NCBI GenBank assembly: GCA_038874215.1
Contig: JAVZCV010000017.1
Location: forward strand, 1 to 25,986
DNA length: 25,986 nucleotides
Reading direction: 5' to 3'
Source: Candidatus Micrarchaeia archaeon
GTDB taxonomy: Archaea > Micrarchaeota > Micrarchaeia > Burarchaeales > JAVZCV01
Below the pieces are notes generated by a model. It was not told the DNA's origin. It searched no databases and saw only the letters and a program-made list of their open reading frames with translations. Both the position numbers and the translations under genes were made by a program. Positions 7,544 to 13,185 of this stretch are shown here, in pieces (the first letter of the stretch is position 1; each line of letters opens with the position of its first letter).

Positions 7544-8941
7544 TTATTCCGTATTTCTGCGCATCGCAGCGATAGCCTCCTGAGTTCTTTCTTTCATATC
7601 ATTATCAATATCTGTTTCCAACGGAATACTTACAGCACCATCAAGCCCAAGATTCTGTTTCTTCGTTTGCTTAATCCAAACCACGGGCACTTTTCCGCTT
7701 CCCGTTCTTGTTCTCAGCGCATCTCTTATGCCCTTCATTATCCCTGGCTTTGCGTTGAAAACTTCTTCAAAAGTCTTCCTATACGGCCCGTTCTTCGGAG
7801 TATTTGCCCCACCGCCACACATCACAACTATTGTTGATTCCGTGCGGTTTACCTCATCGCGCGCAACTCTACCCATTATCCTCCCGCCCTCCTCCATTAT
7901 CATGCGGGCAAGAGGATCCCCTTTCTGTGCCAGAGCGTCTATCTCATGAGCCTGAATTTGAATGCCATTTTGAAGCATTTTTCCCAACGTACTATTTACA
8001 GCCGATACGAGGCTCCTTACTCTCTCCGCGATTATCCTATTGAAATCCTGCGTAGTAAACGTTCTCCCTTCATTAATCGCATTTACCCGCTCTGCCGCAA
8101 CTTCATACAAAATCCTCGCTGCAAGTATATCCCTATTCGCGAGACTTGCTACCCTTCGGGTCATCATAGCATCGCTCATACCGGGTTTTATGCCTCCTAA
8201 ACTGTTATTAACTTCGCTTACTATCCTCTTTGCAGCCTCCACCTGCCCTCTTGCAGAAGCAGGAGTAGTTTCGGCGCATCCCCGCTGTCCGCATCCGCAC
8301 AACCCACCGCCAACAGGTATTACTGGATAGTGGAACTCGCCCGCACCCGTAAGTCCCCGCAAAAGCTGATACTGTATTTTACCACTTCCTTCAACATGAG
8401 CGTTTATGTGCGCTATCCCTATTCCAGTGCCAAGCGTGAAGACAACGATATTCGCATTACCCTGTTTTATTATGTGCCTCTGAACTCTGGGGTTAAGAAC
8501 TGCGCCAAGCGCTGCCGCATCTGCATCGTTGAGGCCCACTATCTTTCCCTTTATTCCCCGTTTTTTCAACTCCTCCACTATGTTCGTCCGCACCCCTGGT
8601 GCAACGTTTGTTATAACATAATTAGTGCCATCCCCAGGTCCAGGTATTGCAACCCTAACCTCGCTAATGCCATCCAATCCTATCCCCAATTTTCCTGCGG
8701 CGTCTTTTATGCCATTAACCATGTTATTATAGAACTCTCCCAGGTTTTTTGCAGACGGTACGCTTACGTCTGCCTTTCCAATTATTTTTCCACCCGAAAT
8801 TTTAACTACTCGTATTTTCAGATTCGTCCCGCCCGCATCCACCGCCGCGATATACCTATTAATATTCGTGTTCGCACTCTTTGTTCTTCTCTGCTTCACG
8901 TTGCGATGGGCTGGGGGCTGAGCAGGCGCAACGCCAAACAT
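7544..8941 (-). CDS. Divergent ROK-family sugar kinase with about 85-aa helical insertion
   Basis: DAGGTNLK, IPGP, NDADAAALG, TLGTGIG, GEFH, CGCGQRGCAE, GDPLA and GGG are present in ROK order. SD GGTGGTGAG. Confidence 0.85.
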   Translation of the reverse strand: MFGVAPAQPPAHRNVKQRRTKSANTNINRYIAAVDAGGTNLKIRVVKISGGKIIGKADVSVPSAKNLGEFYNNMVNGIKDAAGKLGIGLDGISEVRVAIPGPGDGTNYVITNVAPGVRTNIVEELKKRGIKGKIVGLNDADAAALGAVLNPRVQRHIIKQGNANIVVFTLGTGIGIAHINAHVEGSGKIQYQLLRGLTGAGEFHYPVIPVGGGLCGCGQRGCAETTPASARGQVEAAKRIVSEVNNSLGGIKPGMSDAMMTRRVASLANRDILAARILYEVAAERVNAINEGRTFTTQDFNRIIAERVRSLVSAVNSTLGKMLQNGIQIQAHEIDALAQKGDPLARMIMEEGGRIMGRVARDEVNRTESTIVVMCGGGANTPKNGPYRKTFEEVFNAKPGIMKGIRDALRTRTGSGKVPVVWIKQTKKQNLGLDGAVSIPLETDIDNDMKERTQEAIAAMRRNTE

Positions 8942-9032: not shown

Positions 9033-9100
9033 TCAGGACTCAAGATCTTCATCATCGCGCATTCGGGTGCGCTCGGTAGTACCTCAATCTCATCATCTGA
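9033..9100 (-). ncRNA. Box C/D guide sRNA; D guide predicted to direct Cm34 of tRNA-Leu(CAA)
   Basis: Minus strand reads box C AUGAUGA (9096-9090), 13-nt guide, D' CCGA (9076-9073), 5-bp hairpin GCGCA/UGCGC, C' AUGAUGA (9055-9049), 12-nt guide AGAUCUUGAGUC, box D CUGA (9036-9033). Wholly intergenic. Confidence 0.9.
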
Positions 9101-9145
9101 AAAATATAAAAGAAAAAAGGAATAAAAAGCAGCGGTAGGCTACCG
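9101..9145 (-). terminator. Small hairpin plus oligo(T) tract after the leuA operon, possibly doubling as the sRNA TATA element
   Basis: CGGTA/TACCG stem (9133-9145) followed on - by TTTTTATTCCTTTTTTCTTTTATATTTTT. TTTTTATT lies about 25 nt upstream of box C. Confidence 0.5.
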
Positions 9146-9147
9146 AA

Positions 9148-9459
9148 CTAACCGAAAATTGAGCCTATGCCGCTCTCGGCGGCGTTTTCCTCCTCTTCTA
9201 TCGCTCCTATGAGCTTCTCCGCCTTCTCGCCCGTTAATCTTACTGCAATATCACCCAGCTTCCCGTCTGCAAACTTGAAGAAAGCCTCGTCAGCCTTTAT
9301 GTAAAGGTAATATTTGTCAGCATCGCCGCCGATATGCTTGCCTTCCTTTAACTTATATCCCTGCCGTGAGAAGCTCACTGCATCATACGGGTTCTCCCCA
9401 AGTATGGCCTGCAGCTTCTTGTAGTTCTCCCTTGTACATTCGTATATCCTCGTTTCCAT
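9148..9459 (-). CDS. Small hypothetical protein with acidic C-terminal ...EEEENAAESGIGSIFG tail
   Basis: 103 aa from ATG 9459; its SD GAGGTGA overlaps the stop of the upstream gene, suggesting translational coupling. Confidence 0.85.
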   Translation of the reverse strand: METRIYECTRENYKKLQAILGENPYDAVSFSRQGYKLKEGKHIGGDADKYYLYIKADEAFFKFADGKLGDIAVRLTGEKAEKLIGAIEEEENAAESGIGSIFG

Positions 9460-9463
9460 AATC

Positions 9464-11038
9464 TCACCTCTTGGTTTCACCCTTGCTTTTCATCCTCTTT
9501 CTATAACTTATCGCCTCGTTTATCGCACGCAGGAGCGCATCAACAGAAGCCATCACTATATCATCATCAACTGCGTTCGCCTGAAATACATTCCTGCGCT
9601 CATCCTGTATCTTTATAGTTACATCTGCAAGCGCATCGGTTCCTCCCGTTATTGCACGGAGATTGTATTCCATCAATTTAACCTTCGTATCTGCTCCTAT
9701 TATTGCTTGTATCGCATTCGCCGCCGCATCAACAGGCCCAACTCCCTGCGATGCGCCCTTTATCGTCTCCCCCTCATACTTCAAAACAACAGATGCGGTT
9801 GGTGTTACCTTGTTCCCAGTTACAACCGTAACCTCATCAAGAACCACAAACGGCTCCCTTTTCCCATGTCCAAGCACATCCTCTGCTATCGCTATTATAT
9901 CTTCATCGTATATCCGCTTTTTCGCTTCTGCGGTCTCCTTTATCCTTCTCGTTATCTCCAAGAGCGTTTCGCCTTCAACTCGGTATCCCAAATCGCTAAG
10001 CGCCCTCTCTATTGAAGCCTTCCCAGAATGCTTCCCTATCACAATCCTCCTCTTCTGGCCGACATCCTCAGGCACAAGCGGCTCAAAAGTTTCGGCTTTT
10101 TTCAAAACAGCATGCGCATGTATTCCAGACTCGTGTGCGAACGCATTCTTTCCAACTATGGGATAAAAAGGTGGCAGTTGCACCTCTGAAAGCTGTTCAA
10201 CAAGAACTGATGTTTCCGTCAAGCATTTGCTCTTTACGTTCGTCTTAACTCCGTATAGCGCATGGAGGGACATGACAACCTGCTCAAGGCTCGCATTCCC
10301 AGCCCGCTCGCCCATGCCATTAACAGTCACATGGACGCCTCTCGCCCCTCCTTCAACCGCTGCAAGAGAATTTGCCACAGCAAGCCCAAAATCGTTGTGG
10401 CAGTGAATGTGTACGGGCACCTTTACCCTCTCTGTTATCCTTGATATCAAATGGCGTGTTGCAGGAGGGTTCAGCACACCTACTGTGTCTGGTATGTTTA
10501 TCGCATCTGCGCCCGCCTCTTCAACTCCCTTGCAGACTTTAACCAGATAATCAAAATCCGTGCGGGTTGCGTCCATCGGCGAAAAGAGGCACTCAAGCCC
10601 ATGCTCTTTCACATACGAAACAGAATTAACAGCAAGCTCGTAAACTTCAGACCTCGTTTTCTGTATCTGGTATTTCAGGTGAATATCCGAAGTTGAAACG
10701 AAAACATGCACCATGCTAACGCCTGCGTCTATGCATGCGTCCATGTCCTCACGAATAACTCTCGCAAGCCCGCTTATCTTCGCAGACAGCCCCATCCCCG
10801 CTATTTCCTTCACGGCCTCAAACTCGGGCTTTGTGTTTATCGGGAAGCCTGCTTCAATGTAATCTACACCAAGCTTGTCAAGCTGTCTTGCTATTCTTAG
10901 CTTCTCCTCTTTCTTGAACGAGACGCCTGGCGTCTGCTCACCGTCTCTGAGCGTGCAATCGTATATTGCAACACTTTTCGGCATTTTTTTAAAGGAGCCA
11001 CGCACTTCCTTGTTGTATTCCCCTACAAAAGCCCTCAA
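9464..11038 (-). CDS. leuA: 2-isopropylmalate synthase family (LeuA/CimA/AksA DRE-TIM enzyme) with C-terminal regulatory domain
   Basis: [39 protein letters not shown]; regulatory domain GVGPVDA...[11 protein letters not shown] start after AGGTGG. Exact substrate cannot be determined from sequence alone. Confidence 0.85.
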
Positions 11039-11139: not shown

Positions 11140-12903
11140 CTAACAAACTATCTTTGTTCCTGGATATTCCTTAGATTTGCTGAATAGTGCATAAGGATGG
11201 ACTACAGATACTGATGGAATTACTCCATCTGATAGTTCAAATAGTGAGCGCATAATCTGAACTGCCTTTGGCTCTATGACAGCCCTGCCGCCCGATTCTA
11301 CCACTCTCTTTACTTCGTTTTCCAGCTCCGAAATGCTCATTTGCGGCACAACACTTCCTCCTTCACTTTCCCCAAAATTTGCCACAATACCTCCCGTATC
11401 CTTAACATATACGAGCTCAACAGATGGTGTAAGAGCCGAACGAATAAAACTGCGAAGTCTCGTAGCATGTCTTTCAGCATCCTGCCTACCTTCTTTTATA
11501 GCAGAGAGGTATTCCTGCCTGAGTTGCATAAATTGTTTCCTTGCTTCTTCATTGCCTCTAACATGTTCCATAAATCTATTGTAAAGTATTTCTAACTCAG
11601 TTTCATTAACCCTCCCAATAGCGCGGAGTCTGTTCTCTAATGATGCCATTCTTGCCCGAAGGTTGCTATATCCGTTTTCCCTGTTTTCTTTCCTCAACTC
11701 ATCCTGTATCCATTTAATTTTAGTAAAAATCGTAAACCTTTCAGCCAATCTGTCTGAATGCTTGTCTTCCAATTCCGCAACACACGTCGCAATCTCTGCT
11801 GCAGTTATATCGCTACCGTTTGTGCCAAGCGTTACCAATCCCCTTCCATGCGCTACAAGAGGGCCCTTATCAGCAACATACGTCCCTATAAAGCCAGGTA
11901 TGACTACTATCTTTCCATGATTAAGAAGGGGTATTATGTGTGATCTAATCATTCTCCCTGTTTTCTCGTGGTCTATGTCTACCCCAAAGATAACGCGTTC
12001 TTGGCTTCCATCGCTTCTTTCCCTTACAGTGAAATCCTGCAATATTTCACCTTTGGCAGATACGACAACCTGCCCATTCAAAGTCACATTCCCCCTACTA
12101 TCAAGTTGCAGGAGTTCATCCTTACTTGCAGTCCATATAGGCCAACGCTCATCGCTAGGCCCTATATACTCAACGTTCCCAGGTTTTCCGCTACGAACCT
12201 CCAATTCTGCAGCGATTAAACGCACAGATTCGCGTTCTCCGCTTGCCAAAGTATCATCAAGATGCCTTACAAATTCACGTAATCTTTCTAATCTATCAAC
12301 AGGGTTGGTTGCATCTCTTAGATAGTCATGGATAGTTATCCCACGCCTTGTCAGCTCGTCCCACAACTCGCTCGTTTTTCTTCCTATTGCAGAAACAACT
12401 AAAACTATGCGAGCACCGCTTTTTGCTTCATCTATTATCTGTGGCATCATCTTTTCTGTAAGCTCTGGGAGGAGGGTTTTCCCACCGAGTTTTATTACTA
12501 CCGTCCTCCTTCCTAGGACACCCCTCAAAACTTGAAATCCCGTAGCCTCACTGCCACCAAAGCCAACGAGTTCGCTTACAAGATTCCTTAATTCTGCGTC
12601 TTGAATCCTACTACACATATTCCCAATTTTTGGGTCGTTTCTGCATCCCTCATCAACTTTTTTAACTATCGCCATAGCCAAGGTTATATCGCTAATGACC
12701 CGTCCTTGCCTTCCTGGTTCACCACGCAGAAGCGCATCCTTTATCATTTCTACTCCCCTATCAAATATCCTATATGTTACATACCCATTAACTCGGTCTA
12801 GCCTTCTGCGCGCGTATTCTATTATCCTCACGCCTAGCTCTAAAAGTTGCGCTATCCTTTGCTTTTGCACTCTATCATCTGTAGGGACCTTTATTCTTCG
12901 CAT
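11140..12903 (-). CDS. Divergent aspartokinase-like (amino-acid kinase family) protein with large insertions and no ACT domains
   Basis: VIKLGG, LVVSAIG, ASGERES, VVIPGFIG, VTLGTNGSDITAAEIA, YVKDTGGI and GGRAVIEPKAV match the order of aspartokinase catalytic motifs. SD GGTGG. Confidence 0.8.
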   Translation of the reverse strand: MRRIKVPTDDRVQKQRIAQLLELGVRIIEYARRRLDRVNGYVTYRIFDRGVEMIKDALLRGEPGRQGRVISDITLAMAIVKKVDEGCRNDPKIGNMCSRIQDAELRNLVSELVGFGGSEATGFQVLRGVLGRRTVVIKLGGKTLLPELTEKMMPQIIDEAKSGARIVLVVSAIGRKTSELWDELTRRGITIHDYLRDATNPVDRLERLREFVRHLDDTLASGERESVRLIAAELEVRSGKPGNVEYIGPSDERWPIWTASKDELLQLDSRGNVTLNGQVVVSAKGEILQDFTVRERSDGSQERVIFGVDIDHEKTGRMIRSHIIPLLNHGKIVVIPGFIGTYVADKGPLVAHGRGLVTLGTNGSDITAAEIATCVAELEDKHSDRLAERFTIFTKIKWIQDELRKENRENGYSNLRARMASLENRLRAIGRVNETELEILYNRFMEHVRGNEEARKQFMQLRQEYLSAIKEGRQDAERHATRLRSFIRSALTPSVELVYVKDTGGIVANFGESEGGSVVPQMSISELENEVKRVVESGGRAVIEPKAVQIMRSLFELSDGVIPSVSVVHPYALFSKSKEYPGTKIVC

Positions 12904-13081: not shown

Positions 13082-13185
13082 GCCCCAGTAGCTCAGTGGT
13101 AGAGCGCTCGCCTTGTAAAGGTGAGAGCATTTTCTCCTAACCTCACGAAAGCGAGAAGTCGGGGGTTCAAGTCCCTCCTGGGGCT
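13082..13185 (+). tRNA. tRNA-Thr(UGU) with a 32-nt intron at 37/38 (13118-13149); CCA not encoded
   Basis: Acceptor GCCCCAG/CTGGGGC, D-arm GCTC/GAGC, anticodon stem CTCGC/GCGAG, anticodon TGT at 13114-13116, T-loop TTCAAGT, discriminator U. Bulge-helix-bulge-like junction. Confidence 0.95.

Follow-up and report, generated by a model that had tools for sequence, protein, structure and literature searches.

A small gene with a stalk-type C-terminus

We analyzed a 25,986-nt stretch of DNA from a Candidatus Micrarchaeia archaeon (positions 1 to 25,986 of contig JAVZCV010000017.1, GenBank assembly GCA_038874215.1; hereafter the window), in a genome of 1.13 Mb and 38 contigs that is 91% complete, and focused on a reverse-strand open reading frame (ORF) for a protein of 103 amino acids (aa) whose C-terminus resembles that of the archaeal ribosomal stalk proteins aP1 and aP0 (Table 1). 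In archaeal and eukaryotic ribosomes, the C-terminal peptide of the stalk is the common handle by which aEF1A, aEF2, aIF5B and ABCE1 are recruited, and to our knowledge it has so far been known on stalk proteins only. Translation gives a product reading METRIYECTR...KLIGAIEEEENAAESGIGSIFG; we took the ATG at 9459 as the start in preference to a GTG at 9480 because homologues begin at the same N-terminus, METR.Y. The terminal 18 residues, AIEEEENAAESGIGSIFG, are those that an earlier note made from the letters of the window had read as the C-terminus and likened to the stalk motif.

Comparison with the aP1 of the same genome, which ends in SEEEAAAGLASLFG (in longer form, KKSEEEAAAGLASLFG), bears this likeness out. 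When the end of aP1, EEEAAAGLASLFG, is set against that of the 103-aa protein, EEENAAESGIGSIFG, the two match position by position through the acidic run, A-A, any residue, G, a hydrophobic residue, a small residue, S, a hydrophobic residue, F, G and the end of the chain. The whole genome has 9369 stop-to-stop frames that are 50 aa or longer, of which only two end in [FLIMV]xx[ILMV]FG, namely the 103-aa ORF and aP1. The alignment of a profile of the protein's family (described below) with this aP1 runs to the end of both and is confined to the last 30 residues (hhalign E 2.3e-4, probability 44%). The likeness of the tail to the stalk motif is more than chance: the motif is present, is otherwise found in the genome only on aP1, and is conserved in the family, as the earlier note's reading of it would have it.

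An archaeal family defined by its tail

The 103-aa protein is a member of an unnamed archaeal family of proteins of about 100 aa. Scans with Pfam and NCBIfam gave no family match for it (none in Pfam at E<=0.1), and when 66 family members and nine distant members were scanned against Pfam, only scattered chance matches came up. When 1.84 billion representative proteins were searched exhaustively with phmmer, 111 matched at E<=1e-3, 24 of them at E<=1e-10, and artefacts aside these are mostly 95-160 aa long; P0020 (3431 aa) and P0080 (665 aa) proved to be repeat proteins in which many weak matches had been summed, and were dropped as family members. Where the source records of these relatives carry a name, it is 'hypothetical protein' throughout, in metagenome-assembled genomes (MAGs) labelled Micrarchaeota, Norongarragalinales, Marsarchaeota and Thermoplasmata, and matches in the ESM Atlas are to unnamed archaeal clusters only.

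With a profile built from the alignment of 66 family members (A1), we found the family as a single copy in 194 of 201 sampled Micrarchaeota genomes, which range in size from 0.5 to 1.6 Mb, and in 150 of the 153 high-quality ones; the overall figure becomes 192 of 199 when the unpublished G029 and G198 are set aside. With another profile (A2), the family was detected in 82 of the 151 genomes from a second phylum, titled Thermoplasmata, and further single loci occur in MAGs titled Aenigmatarchaeota, Haladaptatiplasma and 'Methanobacteriota archaeon'. A search for longer relatives found no fused forms, which is weak evidence for their absence. Eight long open frames were fetched as candidate fusions; seven (L185-L191) were rejected because their extra length was upstream read-through, the normal start lying some 100 aa before the end, and in the eighth (L184) the family gene was not recovered by the pattern used. 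The 103-aa ORF is a real gene of a large stand-alone family.

The stalk-type tail is the most conserved feature of this family. The top four columns of alignment A1 all lie in it (F102, 66/66; G97, 65/66; G99, 64/64; A94, 59/66), followed by columns of a loop in the globular domain (F30, 56/66; G34, 55/66; Y35, 52/66; also R32, 42/66). A check of tail conservation across homologues, which the earlier note had proposed, went clearly in favor of the motif: it is kept in 102 of the 111 representative matches, 68 of which have the exact end h-[GAS]-x-h-F-G (h, hydrophobic) and 34 the same motif with another last residue or one to four extra residues. Two matches have a degenerate motif and seven lack it, comprising the two repeat-protein artefacts, one fragment and four divergent ends (two reading G-[LI]-S-L-F-[GD]). 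At least three acidic residues stand just ahead of the motif in 95 of the 102 motif-bearing tails, and the family consensus is K-I-E-E-E-E-E-x-A-A-x-G-F-G-S-I-F-G. When 101 tails are aligned, all have F at position -2 and I, L, V or M at -3, while 92 have F, L, M or I at -6 and 87 have G at -1.

These four positions (-6, -3, -2 and -1) correspond to L103, L106, F107 and G108 of aP1 under the mapping in the parts of PMC4267659 drawn on here. According to the same parts, the substitutions L103S, L106S and F107S each abolish aEF1A binding by Pyrococcus horikoshii aP1, L100S weakens it, and the same three residues (L103, L106, F107) are used for aEF2; G108, at the end of the chain, makes a salt bridge with K324 of aEF1A through its carboxylate, and the aP1 tail occupies a cleft of aEF1A in its GDP form. 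The L-F pair is described there as conserved from archaea to eukaryotes and as making the key hydrophobic contacts (PMC4267659).

Predicted fold

An AlphaFold2 model computed on the 66-row alignment A1 (mean pLDDT 90.4, pTM 0.79) predicts a ferredoxin-like alpha/beta domain followed by a long C-terminal helix that bears the tail. It agrees with the earlier description of the remainder of the protein as alpha/beta and unlike aP1, as do the lack of a Pfam match and the restriction of the aP1 alignment to the terminal residues. Along the C-terminal helix the pLDDT declines from 94 to 70 for residues 91-100 and to 57 for residues 101-103; such a drop in the tail is what one would expect of a peptide folding on its partner; the secondary structure and confidence of the model, as opposed to its coordinates, which were not inspected, show no sign of the tail packing into the core. 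Four distant family members of 134-176 aa (P0152, P0154, P0155 and P0157) have repetitive inserts rich in E and K, placed after the globular domain and ahead of the last helix, which look like a stalk-type hinge gained secondarily.

Structure searches added little on the globular domain. Foldseek with the model found no match in the PDB at E<=1e-3, and a search of PDB sequences with the family profile gave nothing below E 0.027 and nothing meaningful. The best match in the VIA wide structure search was 2cve (Z 8.2 over 61 aligned residues); behind it, a plateau at Z 6-7 included LepA, SBDS and TetM domains and KH and PII folds. We read these matches, which are within the tool's background, as the common ferredoxin-like arrangement, and treat as a lead only the modelled resemblance to those EF-G-type domains that make contact with the stalk base. 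As to EF1_GNE (PF00736), there was no Pfam match and no EF1B chain among the 50 listed VIA matches, although a distant likeness is possible; the genome carries a separate aEF1B gene.

Modelled complex with aEF1A

We modelled the 103-aa protein (with the family alignment) together with the aEF1A of the same genome (L153:1436-2704, 25-row alignment A4) and GDP. The ipSAE was 0.63, 0.66 and 0.66 in three runs (median 0.66), compared with 0.00, 0.00 and 0.01 for controls; the three runs agree in at least 92% of contacts, and the partner has a pLDDT of 87 or more. In the calibration of the tool, 58 of 80 solved complexes scored this well, as did 2 of 110 mismatched pairs; the calibration holds only roughly here because our own alignments and a ligand were used.

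In the model, the tail is put into the aEF1A cleft that the aP1 tail fills in the solved structure. The interface comprises residues 90-103 (the core), 31-39, 42 and 50 of the 103-aa protein and residues 15-16, 122-136, 167-172, 320-329, 358-361, 372-376, 400 and 412-414 of aEF1A. By alignment to 3wy9_A, the published domain-1 contacts K125, F129, R132 and L166 are residues 126, 130, 133 and 167 of the aEF1A studied here, all four of which are in the interface, and the published domain-3 contacts K324, L359/A360, I384 and S423 are residues 318, 353/354, 378 and 417. A contact of the conserved S-F-x-R-x-G-Y loop with aEF1A around residue 325 is a new lead from this model.

Loss of the aP0 tail and its link to the family

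The aP0 (uL10) of the genome (L001 562-1452, reverse strand, contig C25) has 296 aa and ends in ...AINSRIGGREEK, without an acidic or hydrophobic tail; the aP1 retains the canonical EEEAAGGLASLFG tail. Reading the gene upstream of aP1 as aP0 (loci L043-L072 and that of the genome studied here), we found aP0 to be tail-less, at 276-306 aa, in all 28 readable Micrarchaeota genomes (27 of 30 fetched loci and our own genome; 27/27 without the unpublished G029), with a short K/E/A/P-rich extension in L051, L054, L066 and L069 that still lacks a hydrophobic end. A PF00428 search recovered aP1 in 100 of 101 Micrarchaeota genomes, with no convincing second match.

For the second phylum, we read the 3' ends of aP0 in 40 genomes with the family (of 82) and 40 without it (of 69), a non-random sample taken from the top of the list by aP1 score with some genes near contig ends skipped; frames were picked by similarity to aP0, and counts made by eye were identical. 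The aP0 tail is present in 54 of these 80 genomes. The family-positive genomes had 18 tailed and 22 tail-less aP0 genes, compared with 36 tailed, two tail-less and two undetermined among the family-negative ones, so that 22 of the 24 tail-less genes are in family-bearing genomes. The family reads as nearly necessary, not sufficient, for loss of the aP0 tail, a pattern that fits a family tail overlapping the aP0 tail in function. In a quick tree of aP0 and aP1 fragments, among whose rows five were mis-framed, the starred branches force at least four changes of tail state.

The tail-less aP0 proteins of six second-phylum loci (L074, L075, L082, L087, L090 and L100) end in ...AYLHAKALE.KIGG, close to the end of the aP0 studied here, ...AMHANAINSRIGGREEK; because the ends are similar, these aP0 proteins of the two phyla are cut short at a similar place, immediately behind the last spine helix.

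Gene surroundings and other elements in the window

The Shine-Dalgarno sequence of the 103-aa ORF includes the TGA stop (9464-9466) of an upstream gene resembling leuA, for 2-isopropylmalate synthase, and the earlier note had described the two genes as translationally coupled. Neighboring genes vary across 29 related loci, with none conserved across Micrarchaeota, and a leuA-like gene adjoins the family gene in just three of the 29, which are loci of the same order, and lies on the opposite strand there; for these reasons, the leuA neighborhood is incidental. No stress-related or regulated context was seen in the neighborhoods of the related loci.

Table 1. Coordinates of the 103-aa ORF, the parts of its product and other features of the window.
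Feature	Position	Strand	Basis and remarks
ORF, 103 aa plus stop	9148..9459	-	Translation; ATG at 9459, stop codon 9148-9150
Residues 1-76, predicted ferredoxin-like alpha/beta domain	9232..9459	-	AlphaFold2; b1 2-9, a1 10-20, b2 36-39, b3 49-56, a2 58-68, b4 73-75
Residues 29-39 (SFSRQGYKLKE), best conserved globular patch	9343..9375	-	Alignment A1; consensus S-F-A-R-x-G-Y-x-L-K-E
Residues 77-103, predicted long C-terminal helix bearing the tail	9151..9231	-	Helix 77-101 in AlphaFold2 model
Residues 86-103 (AIEEEENAAESGIGSIFG), stalk-like factor-binding motif	9151..9204	-	Acidic run, then G-h-G-x-h-F-G at the C-terminus
Shine-Dalgarno sequence GAGGTGA	9464-9470	-	Read from sequence; ends 4 nt ahead of the ATG
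2-Isopropylmalate-synthase-like (leuA-like) gene	9464-11038	-	ORF table, Pfam and NCBIfam scans; upstream of the 103-aa ORF
Short palindrome (CGGTAGCCTACCG) and T-rich tract	9100..9147	-	Read from sequence, without terminator scan; directly 3' of the stop
C/D-box sRNA-like element	9036-9099	-	Read from sequence; between the 103-aa ORF and the ROK-family kinase gene
465-aa ROK/glucokinase-like protein	7544-8941	-	ROK match to residues 32-277 only (47.5 bits)
587-aa protein	11140-12903	-	Amino-acid-kinase/aspartate-kinase-like match, residues 134-375
tRNA, 104 nt	13082-13185	+	Rfam, 61.9 bits

Directly downstream, the palindrome and T-rich tract likely mark the end of the transcript and divide the 103-aa ORF from the C/D-box-like element. 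This element consists of AGAUGAUGA, a 12-13-nt guide, CCGA, a small hairpin, GAUGAUGA, a 12-nt guide, CUGA, a GC hairpin and a T-run, with two UGAUGA boxes and one CUGA box; it scores below threshold with the Rfam C/D models (best 21.6 bits against 35). It had been taken for a tRNA-Leu modification guide. An element of C/D-box type is indeed there, and the complement of its D guide resembles a CAA anticodon loop, but no exact target was found in the assembly: the 12-nt complement matches only itself in the genome, ARAGORN finds no tRNA at its three one-mismatch sites, and complementarity of the D guide to the 16 tRNAs found by ARAGORN is at best 11/12 with wobble pairs counted. These 16 are the only tRNAs that ARAGORN reports in the whole genome with introns allowed.

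Elsewhere in the window, the 104-nt tRNA was missed by the default ARAGORN run and is probably an intron-containing archaeal tRNA. The sole family match of the 587-aa protein is to a split kinase-like domain, far below all NCBIfam cut-offs, and with its long extra N- and C-terminal regions the protein is not a standard aspartate kinase. About 190 C-terminal residues of the ROK/glucokinase-like protein are without a family.

Relation to known stalk proteins

The 103-aa protein is a new carrier of a known motif. Like aP1 (Ribosomal_60s, PF00428), it is a small acidic protein of about 100 aa with a C-terminal acidic run followed by G-h-small-x-h-F-G, but it does not match PF00428, and a search of the whole genome with that model finds only the aP1 on contig C25. 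The body of aP1 is a helical dimerization domain that binds the aP0 spine, whereas that of the 103-aa protein is predicted to be beta-alpha-beta-beta-alpha-beta; aP1 has a flexible low-complexity hinge, which the model of the 103-aa protein lacks. Of the three features that define aP1, the protein therefore has the tail and neither the N-terminal domain nor the hinge. Archaeal stalk genes usually lie in a uL11-uL1-aP0-aP1 cluster, outside of which the 103-aa gene is located. The family tail, G-F-G-S-I-F-G, differs slightly from the G-L-A-S-L-F-G of aP1 in the same genomes; the tail of eukaryotic P1/P2 ends in ...GFGLFD, and its readers include toxins and GCN2.

Most archaea have the same peptide on aP0, and it is that copy which is missing where the 103-aa family is near-universal. 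The aP0 tail is the hinge-joined end of a ribosomal protein of 280-340 aa, whereas the 103-aa protein is free-standing with an unrelated predicted fold. The Micrarchaeota aP0 shares its architecture, a uL10 body without an acidic tail, with Mrt4, the tail-less paralogue of eukaryotic P0, both of whose architectures are discussed in the portion of PMC8481954 consulted here; yet Mrt4 is an assembly placeholder beside a tailed P0, whereas in Micrarchaeota the aP0 copy found next to aP1 is itself tail-less. In the full texts searched, with supplements and most subscription journals outside the scope, no non-stalk protein with a stalk tail and no tail-less archaeal aP0 were described.

Discussion

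On balance, we infer that the tail probably binds translation factors at their stalk site. The reading that we prefer, at about even odds, is that the protein provides a third stalk tail next to those of aP1 and aP0, serving the translation machinery as an additional or substitute donor of tails. Under this reading, a compact ferredoxin-like domain would hold out a C-terminal helix ending in a working copy of the P-stalk peptide, an acidic run followed by G-h-G-x-h-F-G and the free carboxylate, which would dock into the hydrophobic stalk-binding site of aEF1A-GDP, as modelled, and by analogy of aEF2, aIF5B and ABCE1; the conserved S-F-x-R-x-G-Y loop might add contacts to the factors. With the family present, the aP0 of these lineages would have been free to shed its own tail.

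Several observations weigh against the tail-donor reading. No Ala/Pro/Lys/Glu-rich hinge of the aP1 kind is predicted, with helix 77-101 running straight from the domain, and the globular domain has approximately neutral charge and no informative structural relative. The domain-3 segments of the modelled interface (320-329, 358-361, 372-376 and 412-414) lie two to six residues off the published contacts, so the binding mode would be similar, not identical, to that of aP1. Since like complexes are already solved (3wy9, 3wya and 7csl), the pass of the model may be memory of those structures; the AlphaFold-type check that had been proposed for the protein is passed for aEF1A with regard to its controls, but what it shows is the likeness of the tail to a stalk tail, not binding. 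Because 18 of the 40 family-positive genomes retain a tailed aP0, the family is not simply a replacement, and two genomes have a tail-less aP0 without a detected family member. Most tail-less rows of the fragment tree fall in one weakly supported family-positive clade (support 84), an independent-pairs test had no power, as family state differed in almost none of the four supported pairs, and the link between aP0 tail loss and the family is inseparable from shared ancestry. Nor was a link to translation seen in the neighborhoods of the 29 related loci.

The free-competitor form of the earlier note's reading, in which the protein acts off the ribosome and its tail fills the stalk site of the factors, appears unlikely to us, though worth serious consideration. 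Such a protein would buffer, sequester or down-regulate the factors, for example in starvation or dormancy. The tail motif and the aEF1A model fit it equally well, a tail on a rigid, hinge-less helix, as modelled, would suit a soluble binder over a reaching arm, and the globular domain is not basic and has no match to ribosomal proteins. It would be odd, however, for 194 of 201 strongly reduced genomes each to keep one gene for a constitutive competitor of the stalk; the near-restriction of tail-less aP0 to genomes with the family suggests overlapping, not opposing, function, and the gene context gives no hint of stress or regulation. An inhibitor role is less likely, and we lean towards a housekeeping role alongside the stalk rather than sequestration, because nearly all of these reduced genomes have the family, in one copy each, and because it co-occurs with a tail-less aP0.

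A dedicated cofactor of aEF1A that acts solely on its GDP form, whether as dissociation inhibitor, exchange helper or chaperone, is distinctly improbable. It would explain why the model sets residues 31-39, 42 and 50, including the best conserved patch outside the tail, against aEF1A around residue 325, and the cleft concerned is that which the aP1 tail binds in the GDP form in the excerpted text of PMC4267659; yet the globular contacts come from a single model, the genome already encodes aEF1B, and EF1_GNE likeness was found neither in Pfam nor among the 50 listed VIA matches. Short C-terminal motifs do get reused, as in the HbYX-type docking of proteasome activators, where a C-terminal hydrophobic-aromatic-X peptide docks into another machine, and the slight departure of G-F-G-S-I-F-G from the aP1 end of the same genomes could be taken in this sense. 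That the tail serves another such partner, with a convergent likeness to the stalk, is nevertheless very improbable, given that the whole pattern is that of a stalk tail position by position from the acidic run to the terminal G, that the aEF1A model passes where controls score 0.00-0.01, and that the statistical link with the aP0 tail would be left unexplained. Chance resemblance or a non-coding ORF has next to no probability and is already refuted by the 111 representative relatives, the near-universal distribution in the phylum, the confident fold, the invariant tail and the occurrence of the motif in just 2 of 9369 frames.

A further-reaching version of the tail-donor reading, which we hold to be possible but doubtful, is that the protein is a detachable stalk arm in archaea of at least two phyla, an unrecognized translation component that has the stalk peptide as its sole conserved working end, that docks at or near the GTPase-associated center or shuttles factors there, and that made the aP0 tail dispensable and allowed its loss, possibly several times. 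If this were true, the archaeal stalk of these lineages would depart from a fixed aP0(aP1)6 heptamer. A third, free-standing carrier of the stalk tail raises the questions of how these archaea organize factor recruitment, whether it can be adjusted in trans how many tails there are and where they sit, and how a minimal translation apparatus is built, the carrier being near-universal in a phylum of reduced genomes with a tail-less aP0. The claim is open to direct test with recombinant proteins and established hybrid-ribosome GTPase assays, and the tail offers a way to approach, by function, 'hypothetical proteins' of a family without a Pfam model.
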